Positions 1 to 18,141 of a stretch of DNA of 52,009 bases are shown piece after piece (positions within the stretch are counted from its first letter, which is position 1; every line of letters starts with the position of its first letter). The DNA lies in contig JBDGRK010000010.1 in NCBI GenBank assembly GCA_042218075.1, positions 1 through 52,009 on the forward strand, read 5' to 3'. Made by a program: the position numbers and the translations under genes. The notes beneath the pieces were generated by a model, which saw only the letters and a program-made list of their open reading frames with translations, was not told the origin of the DNA and searched no databases. The stretch comes from Candidatus Nanohaloarchaea archaeon. GTDB lineage: Archaea; Nanohalarchaeota; Nanosalinia; Nanosalinales; Nanosalinaceae.

Positions 1-38
1 ATAATTCTTACCAAGGCGCGCTGGAATTTAAGGGTGAG

Positions 39-54
39 CTTACCTAACGGTCAG
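39..54. promoter_or_regulatory. Palindromic operator site (CTWAC-N6-GTWAG family)
   Basis: GAGCTTAC-CTAACG-GTCAGCTC at 36-57. On the minus strand it lies 7 nt upstream of TTAAAT, which would serve the next gene outside the window. Confidence 0.6.
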
Positions 55-1138
55 CTCCTATTTTCTCCTCGAGCTTCCTGATCGCTCTACCTGGCTCTTC
101 GGTTTCCTGTATGTAGGAGCCGGAGACGAAGAGGTCTGCTCCTGCTTGTCGAAGGTCGGCTGCGTTTTCAGGTGTCACGTGTCCATCGACCTCGATGCTT
201 ACCTCGGGATGAGATTCCTTCACTCTCTCGATTCTGGATATCATTTCTTCGTGGAACTCGGAGCCGTAGCTACCCGGGTCAACTGTCATGATCTGGACCA
301 GATCTACCATGTGAACGTATTCCATTACCTGCTCCACTTCAGTTTCCGGGTTGATAGCTATCCCTGCTTCCTTACCCTCTGACTTCAGGAATTCAATAAC
401 AGCTTCGGGATCATCCTCTGATTCGACGTGGAAGTTGAAACGCCTGAAGTCTTCCAAGTTATCTTCTATCCATTCGAGAGGTCTTTCCACCATCAGGTGA
501 GCCTCGTATCTCTGGTATTCCGGCAGCTCAAACTCAAAATAGAGAGATGTATTTTCCACAAAACTACCATCTTCCACGTCTACATGGAAAATCTGTGAGT
601 ACCTGAGAACCTTTTCAAACTCTCTCTCCAGCTCTTCCTGTTTCTCGGCAAGTATGGCTGGCAGAACCTCCGGCTCTTTTTTATTCTCGTAGAGGCATAC
701 CTCGGTCAGTCTTCTCCGATGTCTCTCCTCTCCTGTAAACTCGGTTTGGAGCCATCTCTCCACCTGCTCATGTGCTTCATCTTCCGCCAGGAATGCTGCT
801 CCCAGCGACAGCACGTTTGCATTGTTATGTTTCCTTGAAAGCTCGATTATCTCCGGGTTTCCACCGTAGTAGAGTGCTGCTCTAATACCTTCAACCTTGT
901 TGGCAGCCAGGGCTTCTCCCTGGCCCGAGTGACCCAGCACAATCCCGAAGGCGTTCTCCTCTTCCGACACTTTCTCCGCAGTCTTGATTATATACTCCGG
1001 GTAGTCATCCTTGTCGTCATAGCTATCAGGCCCCTGATCCACCACTTCATAGCCATTCTCACGGAGAAAGTTCTTCAGAGAGTTCTTCAGTTCAAAACCT
1101 GCGTGGTCCGATCCTATGAATATCTTCGGCTTCTCCAT
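44..1138 (-). CDS. rpiB-rpe: Fused ribose-5-phosphate isomerase B / ribulose-phosphate 3-epimerase
   Basis: N-terminal half has RpiB motifs GSDHAG, GHSGQGE, HNNAN and RHRRR. C-terminal half has Rpe motifs HVDVEDG, HLMV, MTVDPG, EVDG and VSGS. Start placed at ATG 1138 (MEKPKIF) behind a TTTAAA box. Confidence 0.9.
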   Translation of the reverse strand: MEKPKIFIGSDHAGFELKNSLKNFLRENGYEVVDQGPDSYDDKDDYPEYIIKTAEKVSEEENAFGIVLGHSGQGEALAANKVEGIRAALYYGGNPEIIELSRKHNNANVLSLGAAFLAEDEAHEQVERWLQTEFTGEERHRRRLTEVCLYENKKEPEVLPAILAEKQEELEREFEKVLRYSQIFHVDVEDGSFVENTSLYFEFELPEYQRYEAHLMVERPLEWIEDNLEDFRRFNFHVESEDDPEAVIEFLKSEGKEAGIAINPETEVEQVMEYVHMVDLVQIMTVDPGSYGSEFHEEMISRIERVKESHPEVSIEVDGHVTPENAADLRQAGADLFVSGSYIQETEEPGRAIRKLEEKIGADR

Positions 1139-1176
1139 GATTAAAACAAAAGCTCGTTTCGATTTAAAGCTGCCAG

Positions 1177-1192
1177 GTAACCTAACAGTTAG
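1177..1192. promoter_or_regulatory. Palindromic operator site between divergent rpiB-rpe and dsrE
   Basis: GTAAC-CTAACA-GTTAG, nearly identical to the site at 39-54 including the spacer. Confidence 0.6.
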
Positions 1193-1228
1193 CTTTCGAA
1201 ATATAGGAGTGAGGCAGAACAGTCCTGT

Positions 1229-1570
1229 ATGACTAAAGCGGCTATCGTGATTCTGGCAGGTACTGATGGACATGAAAATATGGCAAGGGTGACAAACGCA
1301 CTACAGGCAGCGAAAGAGTTCAAGCAAGCTGGTGACGAGCTTGAGCTGATCTTCGACGGTGCAGGAACACAGTGGATAGAAAAACTGGAAAATCAGGACC
1401 ACGATCTACACGAAGTATATTCGCAGGTTTCCGAAGATTCTAAGGCATGCAGCTTCTGCTCCTCGGCCTTTGAAGCAGACATAGGAGAAGTCGAAGAGTC
1501 TGGTGAATATAAAGGTCATCCAAGCTTCAGGGAAATGGTTGATGAAGGCTACGAAGTGATGACATTCTAG
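1229..1570 (+). CDS. DsrE/DsrF-like family protein
   Basis: Beta-alpha pattern with IFDGAGTQW and a CSFC motif, typical of DsrE-like sulfur-transfer proteins. Confidence 0.75.
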   Translation: MTKAAIVILAGTDGHENMARVTNALQAAKEFKQAGDELELIFDGAGTQWIEKLENQDHDLHEVYSQVSEDSKACSFCSSAFEADIGEVEESGEYKGHPSFREMVDEGYEVMTF

Positions 1571-1586
1571 AAAAGAAAGCTGGGAG

Positions 1587-1823: not shown

Positions 1824-1917
1824 CTATTTCACCTCCTGTCCCATTAATAGCTTTATACACCTAAAAAAGGCTAGCTGAGCTCCAACTCGGTTACTCTGAA
1901 CTCATCTAAAAACTTGA

Positions 1918-2256
1918 TCAGACTATATCTGCGTTCTCCGTTCCCCAGTCCTTCATCGCCATAACTACAGGCCTCAGGGATTCTCCTCTGCCGGTTAGAG
2001 AGTACCTCACCTTCTTCGGCTTCTCGCTCACGATCTCCTTCTGGACAATATCTTTCTGCTGGAGGTCTTCAAGGCTTTCTGACAGTACCTTATCCGAGAT
2101 TTTGTGGACTTCTCTCTTCAGCTCGTTGAAACCCATCGATCCCTGCATCAGCCTGTGTACGATCACCGGGTGCCACTTCCTCCCAAGAAGTTCGGAGGTA
2201 ACAGTAATCGGACACCATTCCTCTGCCTCGCACCACTCCGGCATCTGTCGGCTCAT
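1918..2256 (-). CDS. HxlR/DUF24 family winged-helix transcriptional regulator
   Basis: WCPITVTSELLGRKWHPVI, FNELKR, ISDKVLSESL, VRYSLTGRGESL. Start placed at ATG 2256 (MSRQMPEW). Confidence 0.9.
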   Translation of the reverse strand: MSRQMPEWCEAEEWCPITVTSELLGRKWHPVIVHRLMQGSMGFNELKREVHKISDKVLSESLEDLQQKDIVQKEIVSEKPKKVRYSLTGRGESLRPVVMAMKDWGTENADIV

Positions 2257-2289
2257 GTATAGAATTTCAGAACGCACCTTTAACATTCT

Positions 2290-2985
2290 TTACATCAGGT
2301 TCGCCGCCAAGATGATTCCCAGGTAGATCAGGACTCCAAGCAGGTACTCCAGGGGCTTGCCTTTTTTCCCCTCTGGAATGGAATCCCTCACCGCAACGTA
2401 AAAGAACATCCCGATCACTGATCCGAAAACCGGGTTGAATAATCGGTCAGATACAAGTCCGGAGGAGAAAAACATTACTCCCAGTACAGGCGCCAGGGAT
2501 ATTGAAATCTTAAGTCCCAGATTTTTCGAGATGCTCTCGTGCAGCTCGTTGAGTGAAAAGCTGCTGACCGCGACGTGAATCAGGATCGGTACGTAGAAAA
2601 GGATGCCTGAGACAGCGCTCTCCTCCAGCAGAGAGGCGATCAGGTAGCCTATAGCTGTGTGGTAGAAAAAGAGGAAGGAATAATGTAGATCCGCGTAGTC
2701 CTTCCTGAGCTGGATGCCGCTGACATCAGATTTCGCCAGGTACTTCTCGATGAGATGAAGGCTGGAGAACCCGATCAAGGGAAACGCAAAGATCATCTCC
2801 GAGGATTCTGAAACAATAGAATGGAACTCTGGAAGCAGCTGGACGAAAACATAGGAGATCGATACACCAGCCCCGAATGAGATTATTTCCTCCTTGAAGC
2901 CCTCAGTGTAGGATTCTATCTCCTCTACCAGGAAATGAACCCCAGCCATTATGGAGGCGAGCGCGAAGGCAAGCTGGAGCTCCAT
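2290..2985 (-). CDS. Multi-pass membrane protein, possibly a ZIP-like metal transporter
   Basis: About 7-8 hydrophobic segments, with GVSISYVFVQLLPE, intramembrane His residues and C-terminal DSIPE. Confidence 0.55.
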   Translation of the reverse strand: MELQLAFALASIMAGVHFLVEEIESYTEGFKEEIISFGAGVSISYVFVQLLPEFHSIVSESSEMIFAFPLIGFSSLHLIEKYLAKSDVSGIQLRKDYADLHYSFLFFYHTAIGYLIASLLEESAVSGILFYVPILIHVAVSSFSLNELHESISKNLGLKISISLAPVLGVMFFSSGLVSDRLFNPVFGSVIGMFFYVAVRDSIPEGKKGKPLEYLLGVLIYLGIILAANLM

Positions 2986-3033
2986 GATATCCTTTTAGCT
3001 AATTTACCTTATTCAGGTTTAAAACTTCAGAAG

Positions 3034-4101
3034 CTAGAGCCAGTGCTTCCTCAGCAGAAGATACCTTTTCTCAACACCGAGGCTTCTCAGCAGTGAAGGA
3101 AAAAGGCCTCTCATGCAGAAATTTCCGATTTCCATGGCCGAGTCTCGACTGCCCAGGTAGATGATTTCTGGATCGTATGGAATACTTCTCTGCTTCAACT
3201 CTGCTTCCTCAGACTTCATACTGATATTCTCCGCCGCCACTTTTGCCTCGAAAATCCCGTAGAGAGCCCTGTTGACCTTTCCCTCGTAGGAACAGCAGTC
3301 ACCAGCCGCAAACACATTCTCCCTCGAGGTCTGCTGGTACTCATCGACTCTGACGCCTCCCCGATCACATTCTAGATCAAGCTGATCGACCAGGCTGCAG
3401 GGCCTGACACCGCCTGCCCATAGAACTATATCAGCTTCAACTTCATCTCCAGATTCCAGCTCCACCGCAGGATTTCCAACCTCGATAGCTTTCTCCCCGA
3501 GGAACAGCTCCACACCTTTCTTTCTCAGAGACTTTTCAGCGCTCCTGCCCAGCTTTTCATGGTTAGAGGGAAGAAGCCTCTCCGAGCCGTGTATCAGCTT
3601 TAAATCGAAATCATGCTCATCCGATACCTCAAGAAGGGAGGCAGCGGCCTCGACGCCTGTCGCCCCTCCCCCCACTATCGCAACCGAGTCAGCCTCGCCC
3701 TCTGAAAGCTTTCTGTAGATTTGCTGCGGGTTCTCCCTGAACCTCATCGTGTCAGCTCTCTCGTGGCCTGGAGTGTCGTAGAACTCCGTCTCCGATCCTG
3801 CCGCGAGCACCAGGTAATCGTATTCCAGCTCTTCACCTTCTTCAGTATACACCCTGTTTTCACCAAATTTTACACCCTCGGCTTTCTGCCTGACCTGCTC
3901 GATGTTCCTTCCCCTGAACTTTCTCCCGTAATCTATCGTGAACTCCTCATGGGAGCTGCCCTCCAGGAGTCGGTGGGCGGATGGATAGAAAAGCATCGAA
4001 TCCTTTGGCTCAACCACAGTTACACTGAAACCTTTCCTCTCGCACCTGAGAGCGGTTTCCAGCCCCGCAATGCCTCCACCAATAACCACTACTTTCTCCA
4101 T
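3034..4101 (-). CDS. NAD(P)/FAD-dependent oxidoreductase, type II NADH dehydrogenase-like
   Basis: Two Rossmann motifs (VVVIGGGIAG and AIVGGGATGVE), plus YDYLVLAAGS, WAGGV and VFAAGD. Start at ATG 4101. Confidence 0.75.
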   Translation of the reverse strand: MEKVVVIGGGIAGLETALRCERKGFSVTVVEPKDSMLFYPSAHRLLEGSSHEEFTIDYGRKFRGRNIEQVRQKAEGVKFGENRVYTEEGEELEYDYLVLAAGSETEFYDTPGHERADTMRFRENPQQIYRKLSEGEADSVAIVGGGATGVEAAASLLEVSDEHDFDLKLIHGSERLLPSNHEKLGRSAEKSLRKKGVELFLGEKAIEVGNPAVELESGDEVEADIVLWAGGVRPCSLVDQLDLECDRGGVRVDEYQQTSRENVFAAGDCCSYEGKVNRALYGIFEAKVAAENISMKSEEAELKQRSIPYDPEIIYLGSRDSAMEIGNFCMRGLFPSLLRSLGVEKRYLLLRKHWL

Positions 4102-4138
4102 GTAGACCTCTGATCTCACAGGGTTTTTGAAATCGGAG

Positions 4139-4182
4139 CTTCCAGCAAGGTAAGTACAGGATAAAACCTACCGCGAGGTAAT
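4139..4182. promoter_or_regulatory. Two operator sites between the divergent NDH-2-like and mqo genes
   Basis: CTTCC-AGCAAG-GTAAG at 4139-4154 and CCTAC-CGCGAG-GTAAT at 4167-4182. Confidence 0.55.
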
Positions 4183-4219
4183 TACCGATCTTAAGAATCC
4201 GTCCGACTATATGATCAAT

Positions 4220-5557
4220 ATGGCGCAGGAGAAAGAGGAATACGAAGTCGTCATCATAGGAGGCGGCATAGTGGGTGCGGCGTTGCTCTACACCCTGTCC
4301 AACTTCACGGATATTGAAAACATTCTGCTAATCGAAAAGGAAGAACAGATAGCGGAGATCAACTCCCACCACACCAACAACTCGCAGACCCTCCACTTCG
4401 GCGATATAGAGACCAATTACTCGCTGGAAAAGGCGGAGGAGGTGAAAGAGGGAGCTGAGATGGTCACAGGATACCTTGAGAAGAGAGACCCGGAGAGGGA
4501 GATGCACTCGAAGAGATCGAAGATGGTGCTGGCTGTAGGGGAAGCAGAGGTAGAAAAACTGGAGGAAAGATGGGAGGAGGGCTTCGGCGACCTATACCCC
4601 AAGCTTGAGAAGATAAGAAACCAGGAGATAGCAGAAATAGAACCAGCCGTGGTGGAGGGAAGGGAAGAAGAGGAAATGCTGGCGCTCCAGACACCCGACG
4701 GTTACATCGTGGATTACGGGGAAGTGGCGAGGTCATTCTTGGAAGATAATGCTGAAAGAGCAGAGGTATCTCTCGGGGAAAAAGTTGAAGATATAGAGAG
4801 ACAGGATGGGAAGTACAGCATAGAAACAGATGAGAGGGAAATCGAGGCTGAAGTCGCTGTGGTCAGCGCGGGTCCGCAGACACTGAAGTTCGCGAAGCAG
4901 ATGGGATACGGCGGGGAAAAATCCATGCTGCCGATAGCTGGAAGCTTCTTCCTGGCGGAGAACGGTTATCTTAATGGAAAAGTGTATACACTGCAGATGA
5001 AGGGGCTCCCTTTCGCCGCTGTCCATGGTGATTCGGATGTACACGACCAGGACATCACCAGGTTCGGGCCCACGGCCAAGCTTGTCCCCACGCTGGAGCG
5101 CGGAAAATTTTCGACTATACCCGGATTCTTCTCCGCATTCAACTTTGATCTCAACGGAATCCTGAGCTACCTTAACGTGCTCTACGACAGGACCCTGTTC
5201 TCCTACGTGGTGAAGAACCTGATCTACGATCTACCCATGATTGGAAGACTGGCCTTCCTTCCAAACGTGAAGAAAGTGGTGCCAAAAGCAGGATTCTTCG
5301 ACATAAAGAGAGCGGAAGGTTACGGAGGGGTCAGGCCCCAGATAGTGGACACTGAGAGGAGAAGCCTGGATCTCGGGGAGGCGAAGATAGTCGAGGATGA
5401 TATAATCTTCAATATCACACCCTCACCGGGGGCATCGACATGCCTCAAGAACGCCAGGAAGGACACCGAGACAATAATAGAATTCCTTGATGGAGACTAC
5501 AGCTTCGACAGAGAGGGATTCGAAAAGGAGACGCTTGGCAACTTCCCGAGAGAGTAA
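4220..5557 (+). CDS. mqo: Malate:quinone oxidoreductase-like FAD-dependent oxidoreductase
   Basis: IIGGGIVG, NSHHTNNSQTLHFGDIETNY, LPFAAVHGD, RFGPTA, GYGGVRPQ and NITPSPGASTCL match the Helicobacter/haloarchaeal Mqo type. Alternative start at 4211. Confidence 0.8.
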   Translation: MAQEKEEYEVVIIGGGIVGAALLYTLSNFTDIENILLIEKEEQIAEINSHHTNNSQTLHFGDIETNYSLEKAEEVKEGAEMVTGYLEKRDPEREMHSKRSKMVLAVGEAEVEKLEERWEEGFGDLYPKLEKIRNQEIAEIEPAVVEGREEEEMLALQTPDGYIVDYGEVARSFLEDNAERAEVSLGEKVEDIERQDGKYSIETDEREIEAEVAVVSAGPQTLKFAKQMGYGGEKSMLPIAGSFFLAENGYLNGKVYTLQMKGLPFAAVHGDSDVHDQDITRFGPTAKLVPTLERGKFSTIPGFFSAFNFDLNGILSYLNVLYDRTLFSYVVKNLIYDLPMIGRLAFLPNVKKVVPKAGFFDIKRAEGYGGVRPQIVDTERRSLDLGEAKIVEDDIIFNITPSPGASTCLKNARKDTETIIEFLDGDYSFDREGFEKETLGNFPRE

Positions 5558-5592
5558 ACGTTTTCAAAAAGAAAAAGAAGAAAAGAGAAATT

Positions 5593-6095: not shown

Positions 6096-6111
6096 CTTTC
6101 CCGGAGGTAAG
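6096..6111. promoter_or_regulatory. Palindromic operator site
   Basis: GCTTTC-CCGGAG-GTAAGC between divergent genes. Confidence 0.55.
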
Positions 6112-7119: not shown

Positions 7120-7783
7120 CCATTCTGACCAGAGAAGATTTTCCGAAAATATCCATACTGAAAACAAAATCCTGATATGCCTCTGGAGGAATAGAGATGT
7201 CCGCTATCCAGACCTCTCCAGAGTTATTTTCATCCAACCCATCGAAGGGAGCTGCGAGCGTAACCGTATAGTCAGGCTCCACAGCCGGAACTGTCTTCTC
7301 GCCTGTATCCGGATCCAGACCTGCTGGAATATCTATGGATATAACAGTGTTATGCGAGTTGATTTCCTCTATCATCGAATCGAAAGGAGGTCTGGGATCT
7401 CCCTCTAAATTGTAGCCTATCAGGCCTTCCAATACAACTTCACATTCCTTCTCCGCTGACTGATCGGATATCTTCACGTCCAGATTCTCAAGTATCAGGA
7501 GCTCTTGCTTCCTTATGCCATCAAGTTCTCTCGTGGCAAGAACCACCTCCACATCGTAGCCCCATAGATAGAGTCTTCTGGCTGCGGCGAGAGCATCTCC
7601 ACCGTTGTTCCCCTTTCCCGCATATACAGCTATCGATTCCGGATCAATCTCCCTCCTCACAAACTCAGCGATTTGAAAACCCGCGTTCTCCATCATTCTC
7701 GAAATAGTTATACCGTATTCCTCGGGCACTTTCTCGTCGATTCTCTCCATCTGCTCCCTGGAGACGTAATCGATCTCAACCAC
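7109..7783 (-). CDS. nnrE: NAD(P)H-hydrate epimerase (YjeF-N)
   Basis: MMENAG, GKGNNGGDAL, SIDIPAG, TVTL, ADISIP. Start is GTG 7783 or possibly ATC 7774. Confidence 0.9.
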   Translation of the reverse strand: MVEIDYVSREQMERIDEKVPEEYGITISRMMENAGFQIAEFVRREIDPESIAVYAGKGNNGGDALAAARRLYLWGYDVEVVLATRELDGIRKQELLILENLDVKISDQSAEKECEVVLEGLIGYNLEGDPRPPFDSMIEEINSHNTVISIDIPAGLDPDTGEKTVPAVEPDYTVTLAAPFDGLDENNSGEVWIADISIPPEAYQDFVFSMDIFGKSSLVRMVNP

Positions 7784-7940
7784 CCCTCTCTATCGATTTC
7801 CTGGTCACGCTGTGCTGGCACCTGTTCTCCCTCTCACAGTAGCTCTCGCATTCCTCCGCCACCTGCCTCTCCCGGTAGTGAAGCCCACAGCACTCACAGT
7901 AGAAAGCCTTTTCGCCCTCGTATTTTTCCCTCTCTACCAT
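7776..7940 (-). CDS. Cys-rich 54-aa microprotein (not in ORF track)
   Basis: MVEREKYEGEKAFYCECCGLHYRERQVAEECESYCERENRCQHSVTRKSIERGG. It fills the gap between the SDR and nnrE genes on the same strand. Confidence 0.75.
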   Translation of the reverse strand: MVEREKYEGEKAFYCECCGLHYRERQVAEECESYCERENRCQHSVTRKSIERGG

Positions 7941-7970
7941 AGGCTGGATTTCCTTCCACCAGTAAAAAAT

Positions 7971-8768
7971 CTATGGTTTAAAAGCGTTCTCTATATCAAA
8001 TATCCTGCCCGGATTATCCGACACTCCGTAGATCTGGTGGTAGCCTTGCCTCTCATCGAGGTCGCAGGTCAGTATCTTCTCGAGAAGTCTTCCGAGATCC
8101 CTGTGGCTCCAGTAGAGGCTGGAGAAGTATGGCTCGCCTTCCATCTCCTGCACGTCTTCTTCATTCACTCCTCCTATCCTGATGCTGACGCCTACTTGGA
8201 TGTCGCCGTTCTCGGTCGCCTCTCGAGTCGCTCTCTCTGTGATAACCTTCGACCATCCGTAAGGCGAATCGGGATCTTCCTCTCTCGGGTCTAGGAGCTT
8301 GGAAGGCTTATCCTTCCTTAGATCGAAATCCGAGGCGGGGTCTATACTGCTGCTGTAGGGCTCCGGCGTCTTCTCCAGGGAACCATCCACAGTGTAGGCG
8401 TCTATGCTGCCTGTTCCAGCGTGGATCGATGAGCCGTTTATGAAGATCGGTACCCCTGCCTCTCTGGCCGCTTCGATCACATTCTCGAAGATCTCCATGT
8501 TGCCCTCCCAGGCAGAGTGAGTGTCGAAGTTCTCCTCGGGTATGTTCCAGGCGAGATGGAATACTGCATCTACATCCTCAAGCAGCTCTTCCAGCCTCTC
8601 AAAAGCGTCCTCGTCAAGCAGGTCTATGGACTCTGTATCTGTGAAGCATTCATTGTCCTCGATATTTCTGCTGACCCCGATGACCTCGTGGCCTCTGCCG
8701 CAGAGATATTCTGAGGCAGCCTCTCCTACTGTTCCGTTGGCACCTGTTATTAGCATCTTTCTCGTCAT
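7971..8768 (-). CDS. NAD-dependent epimerase/dehydratase (extended SDR)
   Basis: ITGANGTVG, FHLAW, SSIHA and catalytic YGWSK. Confidence 0.85.
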   Translation of the reverse strand: MTRKMLITGANGTVGEAASEYLCGRGHEVIGVSRNIEDNECFTDTESIDLLDEDAFERLEELLEDVDAVFHLAWNIPEENFDTHSAWEGNMEIFENVIEAAREAGVPIFINGSSIHAGTGSIDAYTVDGSLEKTPEPYSSSIDPASDFDLRKDKPSKLLDPREEDPDSPYGWSKVITERATREATENGDIQVGVSIRIGGVNEEDVQEMEGEPYFSSLYWSHRDLGRLLEKILTCDLDERQGYHQIYGVSDNPGRIFDIENAFKP

Positions 8769-8804: not shown

Positions 8805-10169
8805 CTAGAGCTGGTTGCAAGCCCTCTGGACCACTTCGCTCAGCGCCGGGTGTATATGGATCGTATCCTTCAGATCCTCTATATTTCCGCTTCCAGCCCT
8901 CATCGACACAAGCACCTCGTGTATCAATGTCGATGCTTCAGGGCCGATTATGTGGCAGCCGAGAATCTCGCCTTCATCAGTCGTGAGCAGCTTGACGAAG
9001 CCGTCATCCTCCTTCAGCGCCTGGCCCATCCCCGTGTTGTCGTAGCCGAAGCTTGTGGAACTGTATTCTGTTCCTTCCTCCTCCAGTTCCTGCTCAGTCT
9101 TTCCCACACCCGCTATCTGTGGCGAGGTGAAGACTGCGTGGGGCATGTTCTCGTAATCCAGCTTGTATTTATTACCGGTAACAAGGTTCTTGAACACTAT
9201 TTCCGCCTCGTAGTTTGCAGAGTGCTTGAACATCCAGTTGTCGGCTATGTCGCCGAGAGCGTAAATTCCATCCACTGATGTCTCCATGTGTTCATCGGTT
9301 ACTATGAATCCTCTGTCGGTAGTCTCAATACCTGCATTCTCCACTTCAAGGGAATCCGTGTTCGGAAGCCTTCCCGTAGCGAAAAGGATCTCATCGGCGT
9401 AAAACTCCTTCTCATTTCCTTCATCGTCCTCTGCATACACCCTCTTCTCTCCATCCGCCTCTTCTATCCCTGTGGCGGAGACTTCGAGCTCAACCTGGTA
9501 GCGCTCCCCGGCTATCTCGGTGATCTTCTCCGAAACTTCTATATCCTCCCTCTTCAGGACTCTCTCACCTCTCTCAAGAATAGTTACTTCAGTACCCATC
9601 GCATCGTAGAAGTGGGCGAGTTCAAGAGAGATGTATCCTCCCCCTATCATTATTATGCTCTCCGGCTGGTAACCGGGGTTCAGAGCGTCTGTCGAAACCC
9701 AGTAGTCAACTTCATCGGTTCCATCCACTGGGGGAACGAAGGGCCTTGAACCTGCGGAAACAACTATTTTCTCCGCCTTCAACTTTTCCCCGCTATCCTT
9801 GAGCTCCACGGTTTTCTCGTCCACGAACCTCGCCTCATCTTTGTAGAGATCCGGCCCATCAGAATTCTTCAGACCTTTCTCCATCTTGTCGGATTTACCG
9901 TGGACTGTGCTGTTTACCTCTTCAACTATTTGATCGAACTCCACTTCTTTCAGCTCGGAATCGATGTGAAACTCTTCAGAACCCCTGATCTCCTGCACGA
10001 CATCCGCATGGTGTATCAGCATCTTCGAGGGAATGCAGCCCCTGTTGAGGCAGGTTCCTCCCAGCCTCGCGGGTTCGACTATCGCGACTTGCTTTCCCCG
10101 GCTGTAAATGCCCGAGGCAACATCCGAGCCCGAACCCGCACCGAGAACGATCAGATCGTATTCTTCCAT
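8805..10169 (-). CDS. Pyridine nucleotide-disulfide reductase (dihydrolipoyl dehydrogenase / mycothione reductase-like)
   Basis: GAGSG, GGTCLNRGCIPSK redox disulfide, GGGYIS, GDI...KHSANYEA and C-terminal HIHPALSE. Confidence 0.9.
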   Translation of the reverse strand: MEEYDLIVLGAGSGSDVASGIYSRGKQVAIVEPARLGGTCLNRGCIPSKMLIHHADVVQEIRGSEEFHIDSELKEVEFDQIVEEVNSTVHGKSDKMEKGLKNSDGPDLYKDEARFVDEKTVELKDSGEKLKAEKIVVSAGSRPFVPPVDGTDEVDYWVSTDALNPGYQPESIIMIGGGYISLELAHFYDAMGTEVTILERGERVLKREDIEVSEKITEIAGERYQVELEVSATGIEEADGEKRVYAEDDEGNEKEFYADEILFATGRLPNTDSLEVENAGIETTDRGFIVTDEHMETSVDGIYALGDIADNWMFKHSANYEAEIVFKNLVTGNKYKLDYENMPHAVFTSPQIAGVGKTEQELEEEGTEYSSTSFGYDNTGMGQALKEDDGFVKLLTTDEGEILGCHIIGPEASTLIHEVLVSMRAGSGNIEDLKDTIHIHPALSEVVQRACNQL

Positions 10170-10238: not shown

Positions 10239-10361
10239 TCAGCCGAATTTTTCCTCTACTTCTTCAGGATCCTTATCGTGTTCCTCCTCAGCGTGGTCCT
10301 TGAGTTCGTCAAGAGTGTCGAAAGCCTGTCCGCAGCCGCATGTAAAGTCGTCTTTTGACAT
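10239..10361 (-). CDS. 40-aa C2H2-like zinc-finger microprotein (not in ORF track)
   Basis: MSKDDFTCGCGQAFDTLDELKDHAEEEHDKDPEEVEEKFG, with a TTTTTATA box upstream. Confidence 0.75.
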   Translation of the reverse strand: MSKDDFTCGCGQAFDTLDELKDHAEEEHDKDPEEVEEKFG

Positions 10362-10503
10362 ATTAATGGATTCTGCTTCCCTGTATAAAAATAGCAACTG
10401 AGTGAACGGTAAGCACACCTCTTCTTACAGGGAGAACATGGAAAAAGATTGGTAGCGCGGGAGGGAACGTGCTGGAGACCATAAAGAGCCTGGAATTAAA
10501 GGA

Positions 10504-12429
10504 TTAATCCTTCAGTTGCTGCTTCTTCTCGGCAAATATCAGAGCTGTCTCTATGAAGGTGGTGTGGGACCAGGTGAGAGGTGCAACGCTCTTCCCCTCG
10601 CCATTGAAGGGATCGATCTGTTCGGGAAGAAGTCCTGTATCCAGGGAGTTGTCGCAGGTCCAGTGCATGTATTCCTCAGCCTCTTCCAGTTCTTTTTCGG
10701 TTTCCGCCGTATTGATAAGATGCTGGGCCACCCAGAGAGTGCAGATTATCCACGGATTTCCAGGCACCCTTTCAAAGTCATCGGTCACGTTGTGGTAGTG
10801 ATCACCCCTGTACCTCGCGACTCCACCGACATCTGTATCAGGCGATAGATCGTGCTGTATCGCATTCATTGTGTTCCTGAAGTACTCGTCATCCTGGTCT
10901 ACAAGCCCGAACTTTTCAAGGAAGAACAGCGGGGCTGAAACCTCGTCCAGCTTTTCTCCGTTCTCAATACCCCTCACGTATCTCTTCGTCTCCTCCGATC
11001 TCAGGTTTTCCAGTCCTTCATTCCTGATTTGATCCGCTCTCTCCATGTATCTCTCTCCATCCTTGCCTATCTCCTCCGCTATCTCTGCCGAAGCCTTCAA
11101 TCCGGCGTAGACCGATGCGACTGTAAAAGTTGAGATATAGTATTTCTCCTCCCAGAGATCGTAGCTGGGCTGCGGCAGCGAAAGACTCATATCAAAGTAG
11201 CTCCTCATGAAATCCGCTGCCGGCTTAACCAGTGAATCCCATTTCTCTTCAAGTATATCCCTGTCACCTGTCTCTTCATAGTACCTATTTAGTGCCCAGA
11301 CAGTCAGGGCAGTTTCATCCTCCTGTATGGGCAGTCTCTTCCTTCCCTCCTCGTCCACCCAGGCGTGCCACGAACTTCCCAGGGAACCTTCCGGGTTGTA
11401 CTTGTGGAGCAGGTAGCCGCCTGATTCAATAGCCTCCTCCGCAAAGTCGAAGAAAGGCCTAACAAGATCCGGGTAACCTGCCTCCGTCATCACTTCTGCA
11501 ACCAGTGCCGCATCCCTCGGCCATACATAGCCGTACTTATCCTGGTTGAACTGGAGATTGGAGGAATCATTCGCGGCGGTGATCGCCCCGTTATCGTTTG
11601 TCTGTCCTCTAACAATCAGCACAGATCTCTTGAACTGCTCCCTCACGTGATCATCAAGTAAGTCAAGACTGCTGTCGATACTACCCACGAAGCCCTTCCA
11701 GCACATCTCAGTCTGTTCAAAAAAGTCCTCGATCCTCTCATCCACTTTCTCGTTCAGCTCAATCACTTCCTCAAAGTTCTTGCCGGTGTTTATCCAGTAG
11801 TAAACTTTCTCGGAGCTTTTCGCACCGATCTCAAGCTTCAAACTGATGGCTGATTCAACATCGCCCTGAGAGATCGGGTTTCCGTTCAGATAACCGTTCT
11901 CGATATCGTTGGAAGGATCTCCACTATAGATCCCGTACTGCTCAAGCTCTCCACACTCGCCGTCTTCAGTCCGGGCCTCCGCCATCACGTACCTCTTCTT
12001 CTTGTAGTGGATGATACCGCTGTGGTCCGGGTGGAAGAAACAGGTGTCCGCCATTCCCGTACCGTAGAGATCGAAGTCCTGGTGAAAGAATATCTCGACC
12101 TCCCTGTCATAGTCTTCCTTGTTCTCTATCTCGACCTCACGGAGAAAGACGTTTTTCTCGCACTCCACAGTGTCACGGAAAGCCATCTCCAGGCCCTCGA
12201 TCTCGTTGTAAGCCTTCGACTCTCCAAGTATCGTATCCTGCCTGTACTCCGGTCTGGTATCCCAGTTCTCGATCCAGGAAAAACCGTTCGCCATCACTCC
12301 TATCCTGTGCTTCCTTCCCTGCACATGGTTCTCCTGTCCAGCGTAGGGGAAGTAGAGATCCCTTATCCTGAGGGAATCGTCCATGTTGACGAGAAGCGAG
12401 CCGTTTCCGAGGGATAGATGCCTTACCAT
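10504..12429 (-). CDS. Glycoside hydrolase family 15 (glucoamylase)
   Basis: YVWPRDA, QEDETA, YDLWEE, LLPEQ and PLTWSH motifs of GH15. Confidence 0.92.
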   Translation of the reverse strand: MVRHLSLGNGSLLVNMDDSLRIRDLYFPYAGQENHVQGRKHRIGVMANGFSWIENWDTRPEYRQDTILGESKAYNEIEGLEMAFRDTVECEKNVFLREVEIENKEDYDREVEIFFHQDFDLYGTGMADTCFFHPDHSGIIHYKKKRYVMAEARTEDGECGELEQYGIYSGDPSNDIENGYLNGNPISQGDVESAISLKLEIGAKSSEKVYYWINTGKNFEEVIELNEKVDERIEDFFEQTEMCWKGFVGSIDSSLDLLDDHVREQFKRSVLIVRGQTNDNGAITAANDSSNLQFNQDKYGYVWPRDAALVAEVMTEAGYPDLVRPFFDFAEEAIESGGYLLHKYNPEGSLGSSWHAWVDEEGRKRLPIQEDETALTVWALNRYYEETGDRDILEEKWDSLVKPAADFMRSYFDMSLSLPQPSYDLWEEKYYISTFTVASVYAGLKASAEIAEEIGKDGERYMERADQIRNEGLENLRSEETKRYVRGIENGEKLDEVSAPLFFLEKFGLVDQDDEYFRNTMNAIQHDLSPDTDVGGVARYRGDHYHNVTDDFERVPGNPWIICTLWVAQHLINTAETEKELEEAEEYMHWTCDNSLDTGLLPEQIDPFNGEGKSVAPLTWSHTTFIETALIFAEKKQQLKD

Positions 12430-12497
12430 GATTCATCCATGCAAATCCTGGTTTTTATTGGCAGGGCTTACCCTCCGCTTATCTTGAAATTCTGGAA

Positions 12498-13154
12498 TCA
12501 TCCAGAAGATTCGGTTTCAAACATTGAAGCATACTTGCCGTAACCCTTCTCCTCAAGTTTTTCGGCAGGGATGAACTCAAGGGCAGCGCTGTTTATACAG
12601 TAACGCAGTCCCGTGGGAGTGTTCGGGTTCCTGAAGAGGTGGCCGAGATGGGAGTCAGCGTAGTTGCTCCTCACCTCCACCCGGTATCCCAGGGGGCCTG
12701 GATCCTTCCTCTCGACGATGTTTCCTGGTTCCAGGGGCCTGTAAAAGCTGGGCCATCCGGTTCCAGAGTCAAACTTGTGCCTGGATGAGAAGAGCGGCTC
12801 GCCGCTCACCACATCGACGTAGATGCCCTGCTTCTTGTGATCGTAGAATTCGTTCCTGAAAGGAGGCTCTGTTCCATTTTCCTGGGTCACCTGGTACTCC
12901 CTGCCGGATAGATTCTGAATCTCCTCCTGGTAGCTCTGCTGTATCCAATGAGGCGAGGCTTCAGGTGAATTCCCTTCAAACCTGGTATCCTCCACTGACA
13001 GGTTCTGGGTTCCCAGCGCCCACATAGTCCCGGATATAACAAGATCGGCGTATAGGACTATGATAAACAGGGAAACAAGAGCTGAAATGCCAACAACCTT
13101 CCTCCTTCGACTGCCCATCAATCTCTGGCTGAGATTTTGAATCCTGTCCTTCAT
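12498..13154 (-). CDS. msrB: Peptide-methionine (R)-S-oxide reductase with N-terminal membrane anchor
   Basis: [32 protein letters not shown]. An N-terminal RRRK is followed by a hydrophobic helix. Confidence 0.93.
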
Positions 13155-14263
13155 CCGGTGTATACCTCTGTCTCAGGGTGGAACTTGCTCCACGCAAACC
13201 AGTAGAATCCTCTCGGCGTGATCACGTCCAGCTGTCGACTTCCATTCAGCTCTTCACCGCTAAAACTCCATCTCGTCCCGGTGGAGTCTACAAGTGCCTT
13301 TTCCGTAAGCGAGAAGTTAAGTGTTTTCCCGCCTACTTCTCTGCTGAACGCGATTATCGACCCATCGTCAGGTCGCTGCATTATCATCACCGGTTCGTTC
13401 CCGACCCGGTCCTGTATAACTCCCCGCTCCTCCACCACATCGGCCGGGTAGGCCTTTGAGGAGTTGCCCACCTCAATTCCCTGTACCAGTTCCATCTCGT
13501 CGAGTTCGTTGCTGTAACCTTTGGCTCCAAACGCCCCAGGACTGTCGTAACCTCTCTCCAGGTAATCCCGGGACTCGTAAGATGATGGCGGAGAGATCCC
13601 TGTATTCCTCGAAAGCACTTTTGTATCTGGATGTGCTTTCTTCCAGCTGCTCCAGTTGGTGATGGAGGAGTACCTCAGCTCCAGCTGCTGGGGAACCCTG
13701 GGCCCGATTATCGCCTTTCCCCCGATCTGGCTCCAGTAGGTCTCGGTCTGGCGGTCGTACATAACAAGGTTTGCGTTCCTCAGCTTGCCGGATACCCCGA
13801 ACTCGAGTACATCACCGTTAACCTTCCTCGAGAACACCAGGCCTGAACGGCAGAGGGGGCAGTAAGTCACGACTATCGGCTCTCCATCGATCTTGGTGTT
13901 GACTATCTCGTGTGAATCCAGAATCCTCAGGGGGAAAGCCAGAGATTCTGTCTCTCCCTCAACTCCTATTATCTCATCGCCGGGCCTCATCCATCCCGCT
14001 TCGTCTGCATCCTCGTACTTCGGGTTGTCTATTGAGGGAATGCAGTCCTTACCCGGGCATCCCTGTCGGAGTTTGTCTGGATGAACGATATACTTCGTCC
14101 CATCATCGAGTCTCTTAACTTTTTCAGAGCTGGTCAAATTCGAACTTTCCCGGGTTTCAGTCGATTTTACGGGTATTTCGGAACTTCTCTGATCCAGCAG
14201 AACTCCCGCAACTGCCAGGAGCGGAATCAGCAGAGCGATGGAGAAGAAGATTTTTCTGTTCAT
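13151..14263 (-). CDS. DUF3179 domain exported protein
   Basis: Signal anchor, then [42 protein letters not shown] and [14 protein letters not shown] overlap with msrB. Confidence 0.85.
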
Positions 14264-14300
14264 ATTTTATCCCTCTCTCTATTGATTTATCAAGAGCGGA

Positions 14301-14316
14301 CTTACCACAGTGTTAG
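14301..14316. promoter_or_regulatory. Palindromic operator site between divergent DUF3179-msrB and msrA
   Basis: GACTTAC-CACAGT-GTTAGTC. Confidence 0.65.
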
Positions 14317-14370
14317 TCAGACAGTTATCCTAGACCGAAGCTATTTAGCCTTCCGGCCAAAATCAGAACC

Positions 14371-15051
14371 ATGGAAAGCTGGAAAACCCTCACCGCTGTA
14401 ATCTCGGCGGCTCTAGTTTTCTCGGCTGTCTCAATAGTGGCGATGGACGTGAAACAAAAGAATAAGGATAAAGGAGTCGATGAAAAGGAGGAGTGGAAGG
14501 AAAAGGTAGAGGATAGAGAACCGAAGCTGGCGACCTTTGCCGGCGGCTGCTTCTGGTGCATAGAGGCTGTCTACCAGGGGGAGAAAGGAGTGGAGTCAGC
14601 GGTCTCGGGATACGCCGGGGGAAGCAAGGAGAACGCGACCTACGACAAGGTAAAGACCGGCGAGACCGACCACAGGGAGGCGGTCCAGGTGGAGTATTAT
14701 CCATCGATTATCTCATACAAGGAGCTGCTTGATATGTACTGGAAGAGCATCGATCCGACTGATCCAGGGGGACAGTTCTCGGACAGGGGCTTCCAGTACA
14801 CCACAGCGATATACGTTCACAGCGAAGAGCAGAGGAGGAAGGCAGAGGAATCCCTGAAAGATCTCGAGGAAAGCGGAAAGTTCGATGAGCCGATAGTCAC
14901 AAAAATCCTGAACTACACCACGTTCTTCCCCGCCGAGGACTACCACCAGAACTACTCCCGGAAGAACAAGCTCAGGTACAAGGCCTACAAGAAAGCCTCG
15001 GGAAGGGAAGGATTTGTAGAGAAACTCTGGAACAGGACACCCCTGGGATGA
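14371..15051 (+). CDS. msrA: Peptide-methionine (S)-S-oxide reductase with N-terminal membrane anchor
   Basis: FAGGCFWCIE, SGYAGG, HREAVQV, GQFSDRG, AEDYHQNY, and a hydrophobic N-terminal helix. Confidence 0.93.
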   Translation: MESWKTLTAVISAALVFSAVSIVAMDVKQKNKDKGVDEKEEWKEKVEDREPKLATFAGGCFWCIEAVYQGEKGVESAVSGYAGGSKENATYDKVKTGETDHREAVQVEYYPSIISYKELLDMYWKSIDPTDPGGQFSDRGFQYTTAIYVHSEEQRRKAEESLKDLEESGKFDEPIVTKILNYTTFFPAEDYHQNYSRKNKLRYKAYKKASGREGFVEKLWNRTPLG

Positions 15052-15151
15052 AAACTGTAGATAGAGTTTTTCTCGAACGCCACCAAACTCTAAATAGTTA
15101 GCGAAAAATGTTCTCACTAGCATGGAAGGAGTTCGAGGTTGGAACTGAAAG

Positions 15152-15898: not shown

Positions 15899-15910
15899 GG
15901 GTGTTGGAAC

Positions 15911-16750
15911 TCAATCCGTGTTTTCGATCATTTCAGAAATCTCCACCGGGTCCGGAACGTCGTAACCCTGAGCCACCAGCTCTCCGTTCACGAGCATCAC
16001 AGGCGGATGATATCCTCCCTTCAGTAGCGGTCTGAGAAAGCGGGACCAGTAGGATTTGACCTCTATATCTACCTCGGATTCAACCTTATCCGAGGCCTCT
16101 CTAGCTGCGTTGACGAAAAGATGACACTCTCTGCAGAAGCTCTCAGGTATCCAGATAAGGCCGTGAAATCCTGTAACTATGTAAACTTCTATGCTGTTCT
16201 CCTGGTATGCTGAACCGCTGAAAGGTATCACTGACGCCTTCAGAAAGTCTCCATCAGTAGCAAGTAAATCATTAGCCCTACCAAAGATCGATGTCAGGAA
16301 GCCTGAAATGATGTAAATCATGACAAGGTGGGAGTACAACCTGCCGTAATCGAAGATTATATCACCTAGGAATGGATTCAAATGAGAGTAGAACAGCTTT
16401 AGGGGGAAGAAAACAGGAGTCATCGCACGGTAGGAAAGGTTGAAAACTTCCAGAACCGGGATGGATCTAGCGGAAAGGAAACTGTAGTAGGATCCCAGAA
16501 ATATAATGATCGTCAGAACGATCTCAGGCTTCTTCTCCCTTAACTTATCTGAAAGGACCTCCCGAATGGAGTCGAAGTTCCTGTAGAGAATACCCACAGG
16601 GTAGAGGAAGATAAAGGAAAGCGCAAGACCCAGGAATGAAACCAGTGATGGAGAACTCAGGGATTTTGCCAGGAGACCCAAAACTATCAGAAAAGAGAAA
16701 ACCGATAAGGTAAACCCTGTGAGCTGTATCGCTTTTCTTCTCATCTTCAT
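15911..16750 (-). CDS. Membrane protein with C-terminal thioredoxin-like domain
   Basis: N-terminal TM helices, then IPESFCRECHL and GGYHPPVMLVNGELVAQG. Confidence 0.65.
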   Translation of the reverse strand: MKMRRKAIQLTGFTLSVFSFLIVLGLLAKSLSSPSLVSFLGLALSFIFLYPVGILYRNFDSIREVLSDKLREKKPEIVLTIIIFLGSYYSFLSARSIPVLEVFNLSYRAMTPVFFPLKLFYSHLNPFLGDIIFDYGRLYSHLVMIYIISGFLTSIFGRANDLLATDGDFLKASVIPFSGSAYQENSIEVYIVTGFHGLIWIPESFCRECHLFVNAAREASDKVESEVDIEVKSYWSRFLRPLLKGGYHPPVMLVNGELVAQGYDVPDPVEISEMIENTD

Positions 16751-17484
16751 AACACTGGTAGAAGCTTAAGTTGTTTGAAGACTCCACAGATCGCTTCACC
16801 CGGGGCTCCACCGATGCCGAAGACGCAGGTGAGGTAGTATAGCGAGATTGCCAGCATCAGGAAGCCTGTAGCCCTGTTAATAATTGATTCATGCTTCTGG
16901 ATTTTCTGTATGATCTGCTGTCCCCTGTTGGCCGAAACCAGTGAGAAAGCGAGGAGCGGAAAACCGATACCAAGGCCGAACACCAGGAAGTTGGACAGGC
17001 TCGATACGGGAGTCTGGAAGAGGGAAGCACGAGCCAGAAAAATCGCGATAAATCCGGGGTTGCATGGTATAACTATAGCGCCGAAGAAAAAGCCAAATCC
17101 GAAGGCATCCAGTAGAGGATTTTCAGTTCTGGGACCGGAATAGTTCGGCAGGCGGGACTGGAAGTCTATGTCAAGCAGCATCACCAGGCTGATCAATAGG
17201 AGTACAGTGAATGCTATGGGTGAAACAGTTGCTATCACTCCTGTAAGTGAAACCTGGAGCAGCGCGGAGAAAACTAAACCTATCGACAGCATGAACGATA
17301 TCACCCCCGCGACCACGAGCGTTCCGAACATCGCATAGGTTCTCCTGCTCTCCTCCCCTGTCATCCTGCTGGAAAGATAAGAGATGAAGCCGGGATAGAG
17401 GGGCAGGACGCAGGCAGCTGTCAGAGGGGTCAGCAACCCCAGTGTGAAAGAGTTGATTAGCTGGGAAAGACCGATTTTCAGCAC
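16747..17484 (-). CDS. ccdA: CcdA (DsbD-like) transmembrane electron transporter
   Basis: Two intramembrane Cys motifs (ACVLPLYPGFISYL and IPCNPG) and FGLGIGFPL; six TM helices. Confidence 0.85.
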   Translation of the reverse strand: MLKIGLSQLINSFTLGLLTPLTAACVLPLYPGFISYLSSRMTGEESRRTYAMFGTLVVAGVISFMLSIGLVFSALLQVSLTGVIATVSPIAFTVLLLISLVMLLDIDFQSRLPNYSGPRTENPLLDAFGFGFFFGAIVIPCNPGFIAIFLARASLFQTPVSSLSNFLVFGLGIGFPLLAFSLVSANRGQQIIQKIQKHESIINRATGFLMLAISLYYLTCVFGIGGAPGEAICGVFKQLKLLPVL

Positions 17485-18089
17485 CCTTTCTTGATCTCTT
17501 CCTGGAGCTTTGAAACCGGCTTCACTCCGTTCGGAAGCTTTCTAGTTCCATTCTCACAGACCAGTATCATCGGGGCCGAGGGAGGGTTGGCGATCGAGGT
17601 ATCGTAGCGTTTCACCATCATCCTTGTCAGTTCCAGGGGTGAAACTGCGTACCTCCAGTCGAACCCGTTCCTCTGCCTGTGCCTTCTTATTTTCCTGATA
17701 TCTTCATTCCTGTCGACATCCAGCGATACAGAGGTGACATCCGATTTTTCATGCAGTCTTTTCAGTTCCTGCTGTTGCCTTGTACAAGTCGGGCACCAGA
17801 CAGCAAAAGTTTCAACAAGTACCGGTTTGTCGAGCTCGGAGATCCTGAATTTTTCACATGACTCGACATTCACCAGTGTGTAGTTCCTCCAGTCCTTGAC
17901 ATCCTGATTCAGAGACTCAAGGTCAGTGTCGCATAGATTATCCGCGCTACCCCCTGAACCTGTCAGGAACGCACCTGAAATACCCAGCGCCACGAGCAGT
18001 GCGAGCCCGGTGTAATGCCTTTTTCCAAGATCTAAGGCCTGAATTTTCTCTATTAGCCTAGTGATTTTCCCAGATAATTGATTCTTCAT
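17478..18089 (-). CDS. Membrane-anchored TlpA-like thioredoxin
   Basis: TM anchor, then VLVETFAVWCPTC and a cis-Pro loop (PPSAP). Start placed at ATG 18089. Confidence 0.85.
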   Translation of the reverse strand: MKNQLSGKITRLIEKIQALDLGKRHYTGLALLVALGISGAFLTGSGGSADNLCDTDLESLNQDVKDWRNYTLVNVESCEKFRISELDKPVLVETFAVWCPTCTRQQQELKRLHEKSDVTSVSLDVDRNEDIRKIRRHRQRNGFDWRYAVSPLELTRMMVKRYDTSIANPPSAPMILVCENGTRKLPNGVKPVSKLQEEIKKGC

Positions 18090-18125
18090 GCAATATTGTT
18101 TACAGATATCGCTTTTATTGGATTG

Positions 18126-18141
18126 CTTACCTCCGAGTAAT
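18126..18141. promoter_or_regulatory. Palindromic operator site upstream of the tlpA-ccdA operon
   Basis: TTGCTTAC-CTCCGA-GTAATGCAA, 6 nt upstream of AATAAAA on the minus strand. Confidence 0.6.

Follow-up and report, generated by a model that had tools for sequence, protein, structure and literature searches.

A GTAAG-type dyad at the redox and repair promoters of a nanohaloarchaeon, probably the operator of an HxlR-family regulator

The window analyzed here, a stretch of 52,009 nucleotides (nt), is contig C2 of a 1.10-Mb nanohaloarchaeal genome (G000; 40 contigs, 92% complete), and its first 18 kb carry a cluster of redox and repair genes with a recurrent dyad at their promoters. In its refined form, [C/G/A]TT[T/A/C]C-N6-GTAAG, this dyad appears from sequence comparison to be a real element. 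We consider it a transcription factor site and probably the operator of the HxlR-family protein encoded at 1918-2256 and of a paralogue of that protein on contig C3. The regulon so defined would be small and local, consisting of the 18-kb cluster and the promoter of a thioredoxin gene (trx) on C3.

The evidence that carries this interpretation comes largely from other genomes. A matrix was trained on 14 sites from relatives and none from G000. With it, 7 of the 13 promoter-bearing intergenic regions in 1-18.2 kb reached a score of at least 11, versus 9 of 635 elsewhere in the genome. Four of its 10 best genome-wide matches lay inside the cluster (6096, 4139, 39, and 18126, at ranks 1, 5, 7, and 9 among approximately 2.2 million G000 positions), and the C3 trx promoter held rank 10. 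The weaker sites followed at ranks 49 (10398), 51 (4167), 91 (12467), 228 (14301), and 628 (1177), and 15113 fell under the listing threshold of the scan. An earlier note on this DNA had placed the dyad at most promoter regions of the cluster; this stands for the refined element, which occupies 7 of 13 regions, but not for the loose palindrome then proposed, which occurs at chance level. The same note had seen no good intergenic copy beyond 18.2 kb, and none scored well in that part of the window in the matrix scan.

The reverse test employed a matrix built from G000 sites only, which was scanned over the relatives' loci with a crude coding mask and a cut-off of 11. Noncoding matches at or above the cut-off were found only at orthologous promoters: those of trx in four genomes (G011, G001, G008, and G023), the msrA/DUF3179 region in two (G011 and G008), GH15 twice in G006, and a position next to msrA in G010. 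In G022, the trx site scored 12.0 and was flagged as coding by the mask. No noncoding match was found in the loci of the HxlR-less genomes G002, G003, G020, and G024.

Homologues of HxlR were found in 23 of 41 related genomes, and the gene families of the cluster recur around hxlR in shuffled order across genera. The element recurs with them at orthologous promoters of other genera whose flanks have diverged, namely, in the msrA/DUF3179 region of G011 and G008, before GH15 in G006 (two copies) and G014, and before msrA in G010; both GH15 copies of G006 share the arrangement of site 12467 with different spacer letters. The clearest conserved promoter is that of trx, a small gene encoding a CPHC thioredoxin that usually follows hxlR. 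All nine trx promoters of genomes that encode a close HxlR (G000 on C3, G001, G008 twice, G010, G011, G014, G022, and G023) contain an xTTTC-like-N6-GTAA[G/C] element, whose GTAA[G/C] lies at -42 to -38 from the ATG in seven of them and at -41 to -37 in two. The gap between element and TATA box is 6 nt in eight and 7 nt in one, while the letters of the dyad spacer and of the stretch from TATA to ATG differ throughout. The element was found in none of the six readable trx promoters of genomes without a close HxlR (G020, G024, G027, G035, G039, and G040); two further genes, one inside an operon (G031) and one cut (G038), were left out.

On C3 itself, a second HxlR paralogue (4633-5078, minus strand) is truncated by the contig end, with the CPHC thioredoxin gene behind it. 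The left end of the window and this end of C3 may be neighbors, which would make site 39 the promoter element of the second hxlR. Metagenome contigs of runs X1 and X2 reach 143 and 282 nt, respectively, past the left end of the window, and an exact 36-nt search of the metagenome contigs for a junction with C3 returned zero matches. A look-up of listed runs found no RNA run.

The placement, co-occurrence, and neighborhood of the half-site suggest that HxlR is the protein that binds it. In relatives, the hxlR promoters carry a dyad that is one base shorter, GTTAC-N5-GTAAC, often in two copies separated by 3 bp, the nearer of which abuts the TATA box. In the clade of 40% identity, GATAC takes the place of the half-site GTAAC. 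Across 216.6 kb of the relatives' loci, TTAC-N5-GTAA occurred 12 times, 8 of them directly upstream of hxlR; the N6 spacing occurred 6 times, and the remaining spacings tried occurred 0 to 5 times. The N5 dyad was matched by 28 of 68 haloarchaeal hxlR upstream regions, versus 0 to 1 for other spacings, and in haloarchaea, too, tandem GTTAC-N5-GTAAC operators adjoin the TATA box of hxlR. Counted strand-wise over 64 haloarchaeal loci, N5 dyads numbered 51 upstream of hxlR versus 10 elsewhere, N6 dyads numbered 0 upstream versus 10 elsewhere, and all further spacings were found 0 to 2 times. The genes next to haloarchaeal hxlR include those for YjeF_N (9 loci), DUF3179 (7 loci), and DUF1440 (5 loci) proteins and for disulfide oxidoreductases. 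Both spacing classes are found in G010 and G014, genomes with a single detectable close HxlR.

The dyad might instead be read by a different DNA-binding protein, the gene for which lies elsewhere, with HxlR merely a member of the regulon. For this would speak that no operator is recognizable before the hxlR operon of G000 (the region upstream of 2290-2985 scores -1.5) and that the targets have N6 spacing and the hxlR promoters N5, so that the binding of both by a single protein is an assumption. We nevertheless consider a different reader improbable, since the half-site letters GTAAC, GTAAG, and GTTTC occur alike in the N5 operators of hxlR and in the N6 sites of the targets, the trx dyad tracks a close HxlR (9 of 9 versus 0 of 6), and N6 dyads are enriched beside haloarchaeal hxlR (10, versus 0 to 2 for spacings other than N5). 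Moreover, HxlR is the sole recognizable regulator in the cluster by profile searches.

The missing operator and the two spacings also weigh against HxlR itself as the reader, and further observations count against the element as a whole. The earlier note had described it as CTWAC-N6-GTWAG and listed ten 16-mers, all of which are present at their coordinates, with 1, 1, 1, 2, 1, 2, 2, 0, 2, and 1 mismatches from site 39 to site 18126. With two mismatches allowed, the window holds 44 matches to that consensus; shuffled sequences give 47.6 ± 6.9, with 44 or more in 74 out of 100, and its enrichment is therefore not upheld. With at most one mismatch there are 7 matches, all within 1-18.2 kb, the one at 17232 being intragenic. 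The dyad is strong on one side, where it reads GGTAAG; the other side, at a distance of six bases, is a degenerate CTnAC or CTTTC. The intergenic recurrence of GGTAAG places the window 61st of 630 after taking the maximum over all hexamers, which is not decisive, and hexamer clustering was dropped as proof. Under strict geometry (4 to 11 nt before TATA), GGTAA and GTAAG rank first and second of 1,024 pentamers for enrichment in the cluster (raw p, 1.3e-4 and 8e-4), and the better p value fails correction for 1,024 tests. Taken by themselves, the tests within G000 are no more than suggestive.

Beyond these counts, the left half of the dyad is degenerate, and three promoter regions of the cluster (2980-3040, 7775-7975, and that of tauE) are without a site. 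In five whole relatives, the exact refined consensus gave 5 to 8 matches versus 7 to 16 for the reversed control, and the exact N5 form gave 1 to 3 versus 0 to 3. The best dyad outside the cluster, a near-perfect copy at C16:7266-7281, has neither a TATA box behind it nor redox neighbors. Neither matrix test is fully blind, because the training sites were picked by eye with the motif already known, and the related genomes share ancestry and are not independent samples. A fortuitous resemblance, selected by eye where the G+C content is higher, would fit the loose consensus, the unremarkable hexamer clustering after multiple testing, and the exact counts in the relatives. It is nonetheless hardly credible in view of the external matrix (7 of 13 cluster regions versus 9 of 635 background regions), the orthologous promoters that keep the element between diverged flanks, and the specificity of the enrichment for spacing.

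The exact counts at control level indicate that the regulon is small and that the word alone is not specific. A large genome-wide regulon was rejected on the same counts and because the top matrix matches outside the cluster are mostly intragenic. The noncoding extras C16:7266, C20:26816, C10:111946, and C33:2175 were also rejected as members, since redox neighbors or TATA boxes are missing. The neighbors of C16:7266 are unknown proteins, secreted- or membrane-looking. The scan also recorded near-identical, repeat-like copies on C29 (2426, 2814, 4252, and 4589, noncoding) and C12 (9728 and 10224, predicted coding).

The sites and the genes around them are listed in Table 1. Of the ten sites first proposed, eight are supported, 1177 is plausible, and 15113 is not supported and was dropped as an operator; the site at 1890 and the C3 trx promoter are additions. 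Where the start codon is clear, the usual order is site, 5 to 10 nt, a TATA box of 7 to 9 nt, 20 to 23 nt, and a leaderless ATG. This order is seen at 39, 10398, 12467, 14301, and 18126 and in both directions at 1177 and 4139, where a single dyad stands midway between divergent TATA boxes. The earlier observation that the sites lie just upstream of the B recognition element (BRE) and TATA box is borne out at these seven sites and at 4167, all with gaps of 5 to 10 nt; the exceptions are 6096, with 13 nt, and 15113, with no TATA box behind it. The weak site 1177 is not kept in a related strain (run X2), where the rpiB-rpe/dsrE intergenic sequence (1138-1229) differs and has loose ends on both sides.

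Table 1. Candidate operator sites and main genes of the cluster. Positions are those of the window; scores are those of the dyad matrix, and background percentages give the share of background regions that attain the score.
Feature	Position	Strand	Details
Dyad	39-54	-	Minus reading ends GGTAAG; 7 nt before TATA-like TTAAATT 25-31; score 16.2; promoter points left, gene beyond contig end
Weak dyad	1177-1192	.	Midway between divergent leaderless rpiB-rpe (-) and dsrE-like (+) promoters; minus side, 8 nt to TTTAAAT, 23 nt more to ATG 1138; plus side, 7 nt to AATATAG, 22 nt more to ATG 1229; score 7.1 (9% of background), geometry right on both strands
Additional candidate dyad	1890-1905	-	Between hxlR stop and rdx; about 21 nt before T-rich TATA-like stretch; score 12.1 (0.8% of background)
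hxlR	1918-2256	-	112-aa winged-helix regulator; W-C-x5-W-C-P at residues 8-16; PF01638
Membrane protein with five transmembrane segments, family not recognized	2290-2985	-	Directly upstream of hxlR; pair also in G011
Pyr_redox_2 pyridine-nucleotide-disulfide oxidoreductase	3034-4101	-	Leaderless promoter uses site 4139: site, 6 nt, TTTCAAAAA, 22 nt, ATG 4101
Dyad	4139-4154	.	TATA 6 nt off each side: ATAAAA 4161-4166 (+), TTTCAAAAA 4124-4132 (-); score 16.5
Second dyad, same intergenic region as 4139	4167-4182	.	Score 12.1 on minus strand
FAD-dependent oxidoreductase, DAO/Mqo/LhgO type	4211-5557	+	Profile matches; substrate not assigned
Best-scoring dyad	6096-6111	+	13 nt, TTTTTTAGA, 21 nt, ATG 6155 (dsrE-like, cyclase operon); score 18.2
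"Epimerase" short-chain dehydrogenase/reductase	7971-8768	-	Weak match to haloarchaeal NAD-dependent glucose-6-phosphate dehydrogenase Azf, 67 bits vs cut-off 400
Class I flavoprotein disulfide reductase	8805-10169	-	Dihydrolipoyl dehydrogenase, mycothione or glutathione reductase type; often adjoins hxlR in relatives
40-aa Cys2-His2-like zinc-finger micro-ORF	10239-10361	-	Own leaderless promoter; first in reductase transcription unit
Dyad	10398-10413	-	5 nt, ATTTTTATAC, 22 nt, ATG 10361 of micro-ORF; weak half closest to TATA; score 12.2 (0.6% of background)
GH15 glucoamylase-like hydrolase	10504-12429	-	Profile match
Dyad	12467-12482	-	8 nt, ATAAAAA, 22 nt, ATG 12429 (GH15); score 11.2
DUF3179-msrB operon	12498-14263	-	Both products with one N-terminal transmembrane anchor
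Dyad	14301-14316	-	10 nt, ATAAATC, 20 nt, ATG 14263; 25 nt to divergent msrA TATA; score 9.2
msrA	14371-15051	+	N-terminal transmembrane anchor
Proposed tauE site, unsupported	15113-15128	+	Score 2.1 (44% of background); TATA missing behind
Operon: membrane-anchored thioredoxin-like protein 17478-18089; CcdA/DsbD_TM 16747-17484; protein with four transmembrane segments 15911-16750	15911-18089	-
Dyad	18126-18141	-	7 nt, ATAAAAG, 22 nt, ATG 18089; 15 nt to TATA of divergent 18186 promoter; score 15.7

A fixed distance to TATA and ATG would also be expected of a promoter-class signal for a basal factor, for example, an alternative TFB or TBP that reads an extended BRE. We regard such a signal as very improbable, since the 92%-complete genome holds a single TFB reading frame and the element stands upstream of the 6-nt place of the BRE, not inside it, with dyad character and in both orientations. 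Over 1,262 upstream regions of the genome, which show a TATA-type AT peak at -24 to -32 and hence a genome-wide leaderless geometry, GGTAAG has no positional peak and the enriched words are TATA-like only; a general promoter element was rejected on these grounds. A Shine-Dalgarno reading of "GGAGGTAAG" was likewise rejected, because the promoters are leaderless and the element lies 38 to 45 nt before the ATG.

The proposed reader belongs to the HxlR family, as had been recognized earlier (PF01638, 93.3 bits versus a cut-off of 20.8; E, 8.8e-27; residues 33-119 of the long reading frame). The family search of the genome also recovers 1918-2256 as PF01638, and the start at 2256 is consistent with the orthologues. 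It appears to be encoded in an operon behind 2290-2985. A conserved reactive cysteine at the N-terminal end of helix α1 is known from HypR (Cys14), YodB (Cys6), and HxlR (Cys11). The best solved relative of the protein is HypR/YybR of Bacillus subtilis (4a5m; E, 2.8e-20). In the phmmer alignment, the query EEWCPITVT lies over KEGCPVEFT of 4a5m and also over the C14S form, 4a5n, and the earlier comparison with known N-terminal cysteine sensors is supported in that the CP cysteine comes to lie opposite Cys14, the sensing residue of HypR. Among the homologues, which were compared by identities and N-terminal motifs, the CP cysteine is kept in all close ones. The protein has two cysteines only, both in W-C-x5-W-C-P, and the second of them, six residues earlier, is found subfamily-wide. 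The alignment shows no cysteine at the column of HypR Cys49; a different putative partner, Cys9, is conserved. The regulator is not peculiar to nanohaloarchaea, as Halobacteria commonly have proteins 56 to 66% identical to it, together with an operator of the same type.

In the mechanism that we propose, an HxlR dimer would bind the dyad, and oxidation or alkylation of the Cys9/Cys15 pair, numbered from the Met at 2256 and with Cys15 as the equivalent of HypR Cys14, would alter how it binds DNA or its conformation. As the BRE begins at the end of the site, bound HxlR would be expected to touch TFB/TBP or compete with them, and with one TFB gene only it would either help or hinder these factors. 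We lean slightly to activation at the target promoters, because the gap to TATA is fixed with the BRE left free, because some TATA boxes are weak, and because HypR regulates positively, its switch being a disulfide at Cys14 under disulfide stress (PMC3351151). The likening of the regulator to an activator in the earlier note is a reading of position only.

On the same operator, HxlR could instead act as a plain repressor of the YodB or QsrR type, the reduced dimer blocking TFB and cysteine oxidation or alkylation releasing it to de-repress the cluster. We give this reading less than even odds, repression being nearly as likely as activation. YodB and QsrR are repressors, and both are among the solved relatives (5hs7 for YodB; 4hqe and 4hqm for QsrR). 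Site 4167 is downstream of the plus-strand TATA at 4161-4166, a position that would suit a repressor of the 4211 gene. Only 5 to 6 nt separate TATA from the nearest half-site at 10398 and at the 3034-4101 promoter, so that occlusion of TFB is sterically plausible, and the N5 operators at the hxlR promoters overlap BRE/TATA. Against repression stand the 6-nt gap at eight of the nine trx promoters, which leaves the BRE free and is more typical of factors working with TFB, the weakness of some TATA boxes, and the positive action of HypR, the closest solved relative. These points are not decisive.

At the hxlR promoters of the relatives, GTTAC-N5-GTAAC would, by overlapping BRE/TATA, cause autorepression. 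We further envisage, as a doubtful extension of HxlR binding to the dyad, that a single HxlR dimer reads both operators according to its redox state, in an arrangement common to Halobacteria and their nanohaloarchaeal symbionts. The N6 class would stand just upstream of the BRE at targets, and the N5 class, often in tandem, over the BRE/TATA of hxlR. Oxidation of W-C-x5-W-C would pull the recognition helices closer by approximately one base-pair step and thereby move HxlR between the classes. The basis for this choice would be HypR, whose recognition helices move approximately 4 angstroms closer on oxidation, i.e., about one base-pair step (PMC3351151). If this were the case, one thiol switch would turn the repair cluster and the synthesis of HxlR in opposite ways.

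The first 18.6 kb contain approximately 22 genes. They encode an RpiB-Rpe fusion, two DsrE-like proteins, an Rdx-fold protein, HxlR, a five-transmembrane protein without known family, a Pyr_redox_2 oxidoreductase, a DAO/Mqo-type flavoprotein, a DUF1440 protein, a cyclase, YjeF_N, a weakly matched Azf-like short-chain dehydrogenase/reductase, a class I flavoprotein disulfide reductase behind a 40-aa zinc-finger micro-ORF, a GH15 hydrolase, DUF3179-MsrB, MsrA, TauE, and an operon of a thioredoxin-like protein, CcdA, and a four-transmembrane protein. The last of these, at 15911-16750, has a weak Thioredoxin_3 match. In relatives, a similar micro-ORF ends just upstream of reductase, GH15, or thioredoxin genes. 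Close homologues of the window proteins carry the source names Candidatus Nanohaloarchaeota or Nanohalobium, in agreement with the nanohaloarchaeal assignment in the earlier note.

By a simple hydropathy scan, MsrA, MsrB, the DUF3179 protein, and the 17478-18089 protein have one N-terminal hydrophobic anchor each. With PMSR, SelR, DsbD_TM, and Redoxin/Thioredoxin matches and CcdA/DsbD_TM alongside, they make up an extracytoplasmic Msr repair module. As judged from the family assignments, which alone were tested, the gene set fits a single task. Reducing power would be supplied through GH15, the Azf-like protein, RpiB-Rpe, and NAD(P)HX repair, and oxidized methionine and cysteine would be repaired at the surface through CcdA; the set also comprises small thiol proteins and disulfide reductases. 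Should 7971-8768 be an Azf in function, it would give the cluster a source of reducing power. The theme of thiol and oxidative repair given to the cluster in the earlier note is thus retained. The "quinone oxidoreductases" of that note are not established, as the Mqo match of 4211-5557 is weak (the best NCBIfam match is L-2-hydroxyglutarate oxidase, 114 bits versus a cut-off of 299) and two cultured nanohaloarchaeal strains are reported to be without any respiratory complexes (PMC10266531).

Beyond 18.6 kb, the window contains peptidase genes, and it also holds a very long open reading frame of approximately 2,320 aa (27081-34046, plus strand). Where the redox cluster ends, at approximately 18 kb, the G+C content steps down from about 0.50 (0.48-0.53) to about 0.45 (0.43-0.47). 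This step and the high identity between HxlR and haloarchaeal proteins hint at possible exchange with hosts.

In kind, the proposed system would be an HxlR/DUF24 thiol-switch regulon, not a new kind of system, and it would differ from known ones in its cysteine pair, its archaeal promoter context, the number of operators per cluster, and its two spacing classes. YodB of B. subtilis and QsrR of Staphylococcus aureus are of the same family by sequence (5hs7, E 1.2e-17; 4hqe and 4hqm, approximately 1e-12). They sense quinones and diamide through an N-terminal reactive cysteine and control small local reductase regulons; both act in bacteria as repressors, from operators that overlap sigma-70 promoters and differ in sequence from the element here. 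Quinones are doubtful as the signal in nanohaloarchaea, given the cultured strains without respiratory complexes mentioned above. HypR of B. subtilis (MarR/DUF24) shares the PF01638 fold, with its sensing Cys14 at the start of helix α1 aligned with the CP cysteine, and it controls an adjacent oxidoreductase gene, a setting like that of the cluster (PMC3351151). Its partner, Cys49', has no counterpart here, where the second cysteine lies six residues before the first, so that the disulfide partner must differ. Unlike HypR, the present system would act on archaeal basal machinery (TBP, TFB, and leaderless promoters) and through approximately ten operators of two spacing classes.

Among archaeal redox regulators, SurR of Pyrococcus furiosus is a winged helix-turn-helix protein of a non-PF01638 family with an N-terminal cysteine pair (CxxC). 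It activates from sites upstream of BRE/TATA, represses from sites overlapping or downstream of them, and represses its own gene; its motif and target genes are other than those of the HxlR element. In the searches that we ran, SurR was not recovered as a homologue of 1918-2256. OxsR of Haloferax volcanii (TrmB family) and RosR of Halobacterium salinarum are thiol- or reactive oxygen species-responsive in hypersaline archaea, as is proposed for HxlR; they belong to other protein families with broader regulons and were absent among the sequence relatives of HxlR in the homology searches. The target genes match the CcdA-Etrx-MsrAB surface repair system of Streptococcus pneumoniae (PMC3914529), with membrane-anchored MsrA/MsrB, an anchored thioredoxin-fold protein, and a CcdA/DsbD_TM conduit. 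The nanohaloarchaeal set differs in its archaeal envelope and in DUF3179 and further partners, and the regulation proposed here is not part of the pneumococcal system.

Nanohaloarchaea are tiny fermentative symbionts. The cultured strains of one paper grow alongside an aerobic haloarchaeal host and have to withstand oxygen, and section 8 of that paper lists redox genes and names no regulator (PMC10266531). Our literature search, which covered the open literature with subscription journals and supplements outside it, returned no account of an HxlR regulon or operator from either nanohaloarchaea or haloarchaea, in agreement with the earlier note, and none of the control of nanohaloarchaeal defenses. 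The cluster offers a testable regulatory unit: its operator is defined, its candidate regulator, a putative thiol sensor, has a conserved cysteine pair, and its target promoters are of fixed geometry. As the HxlR subfamily and its operator type are widespread in cultivable, genetically tractable genera, e.g., Haloarcula and Halobacterium, the prediction can be tested there and transferred to the uncultivated symbionts. If confirmed, this would be, as far as the literature search shows, the first characterized HxlR-family redox regulon in Archaea and a useful case of a bacterial-type winged-helix switch acting against archaeal TBP and TFB.

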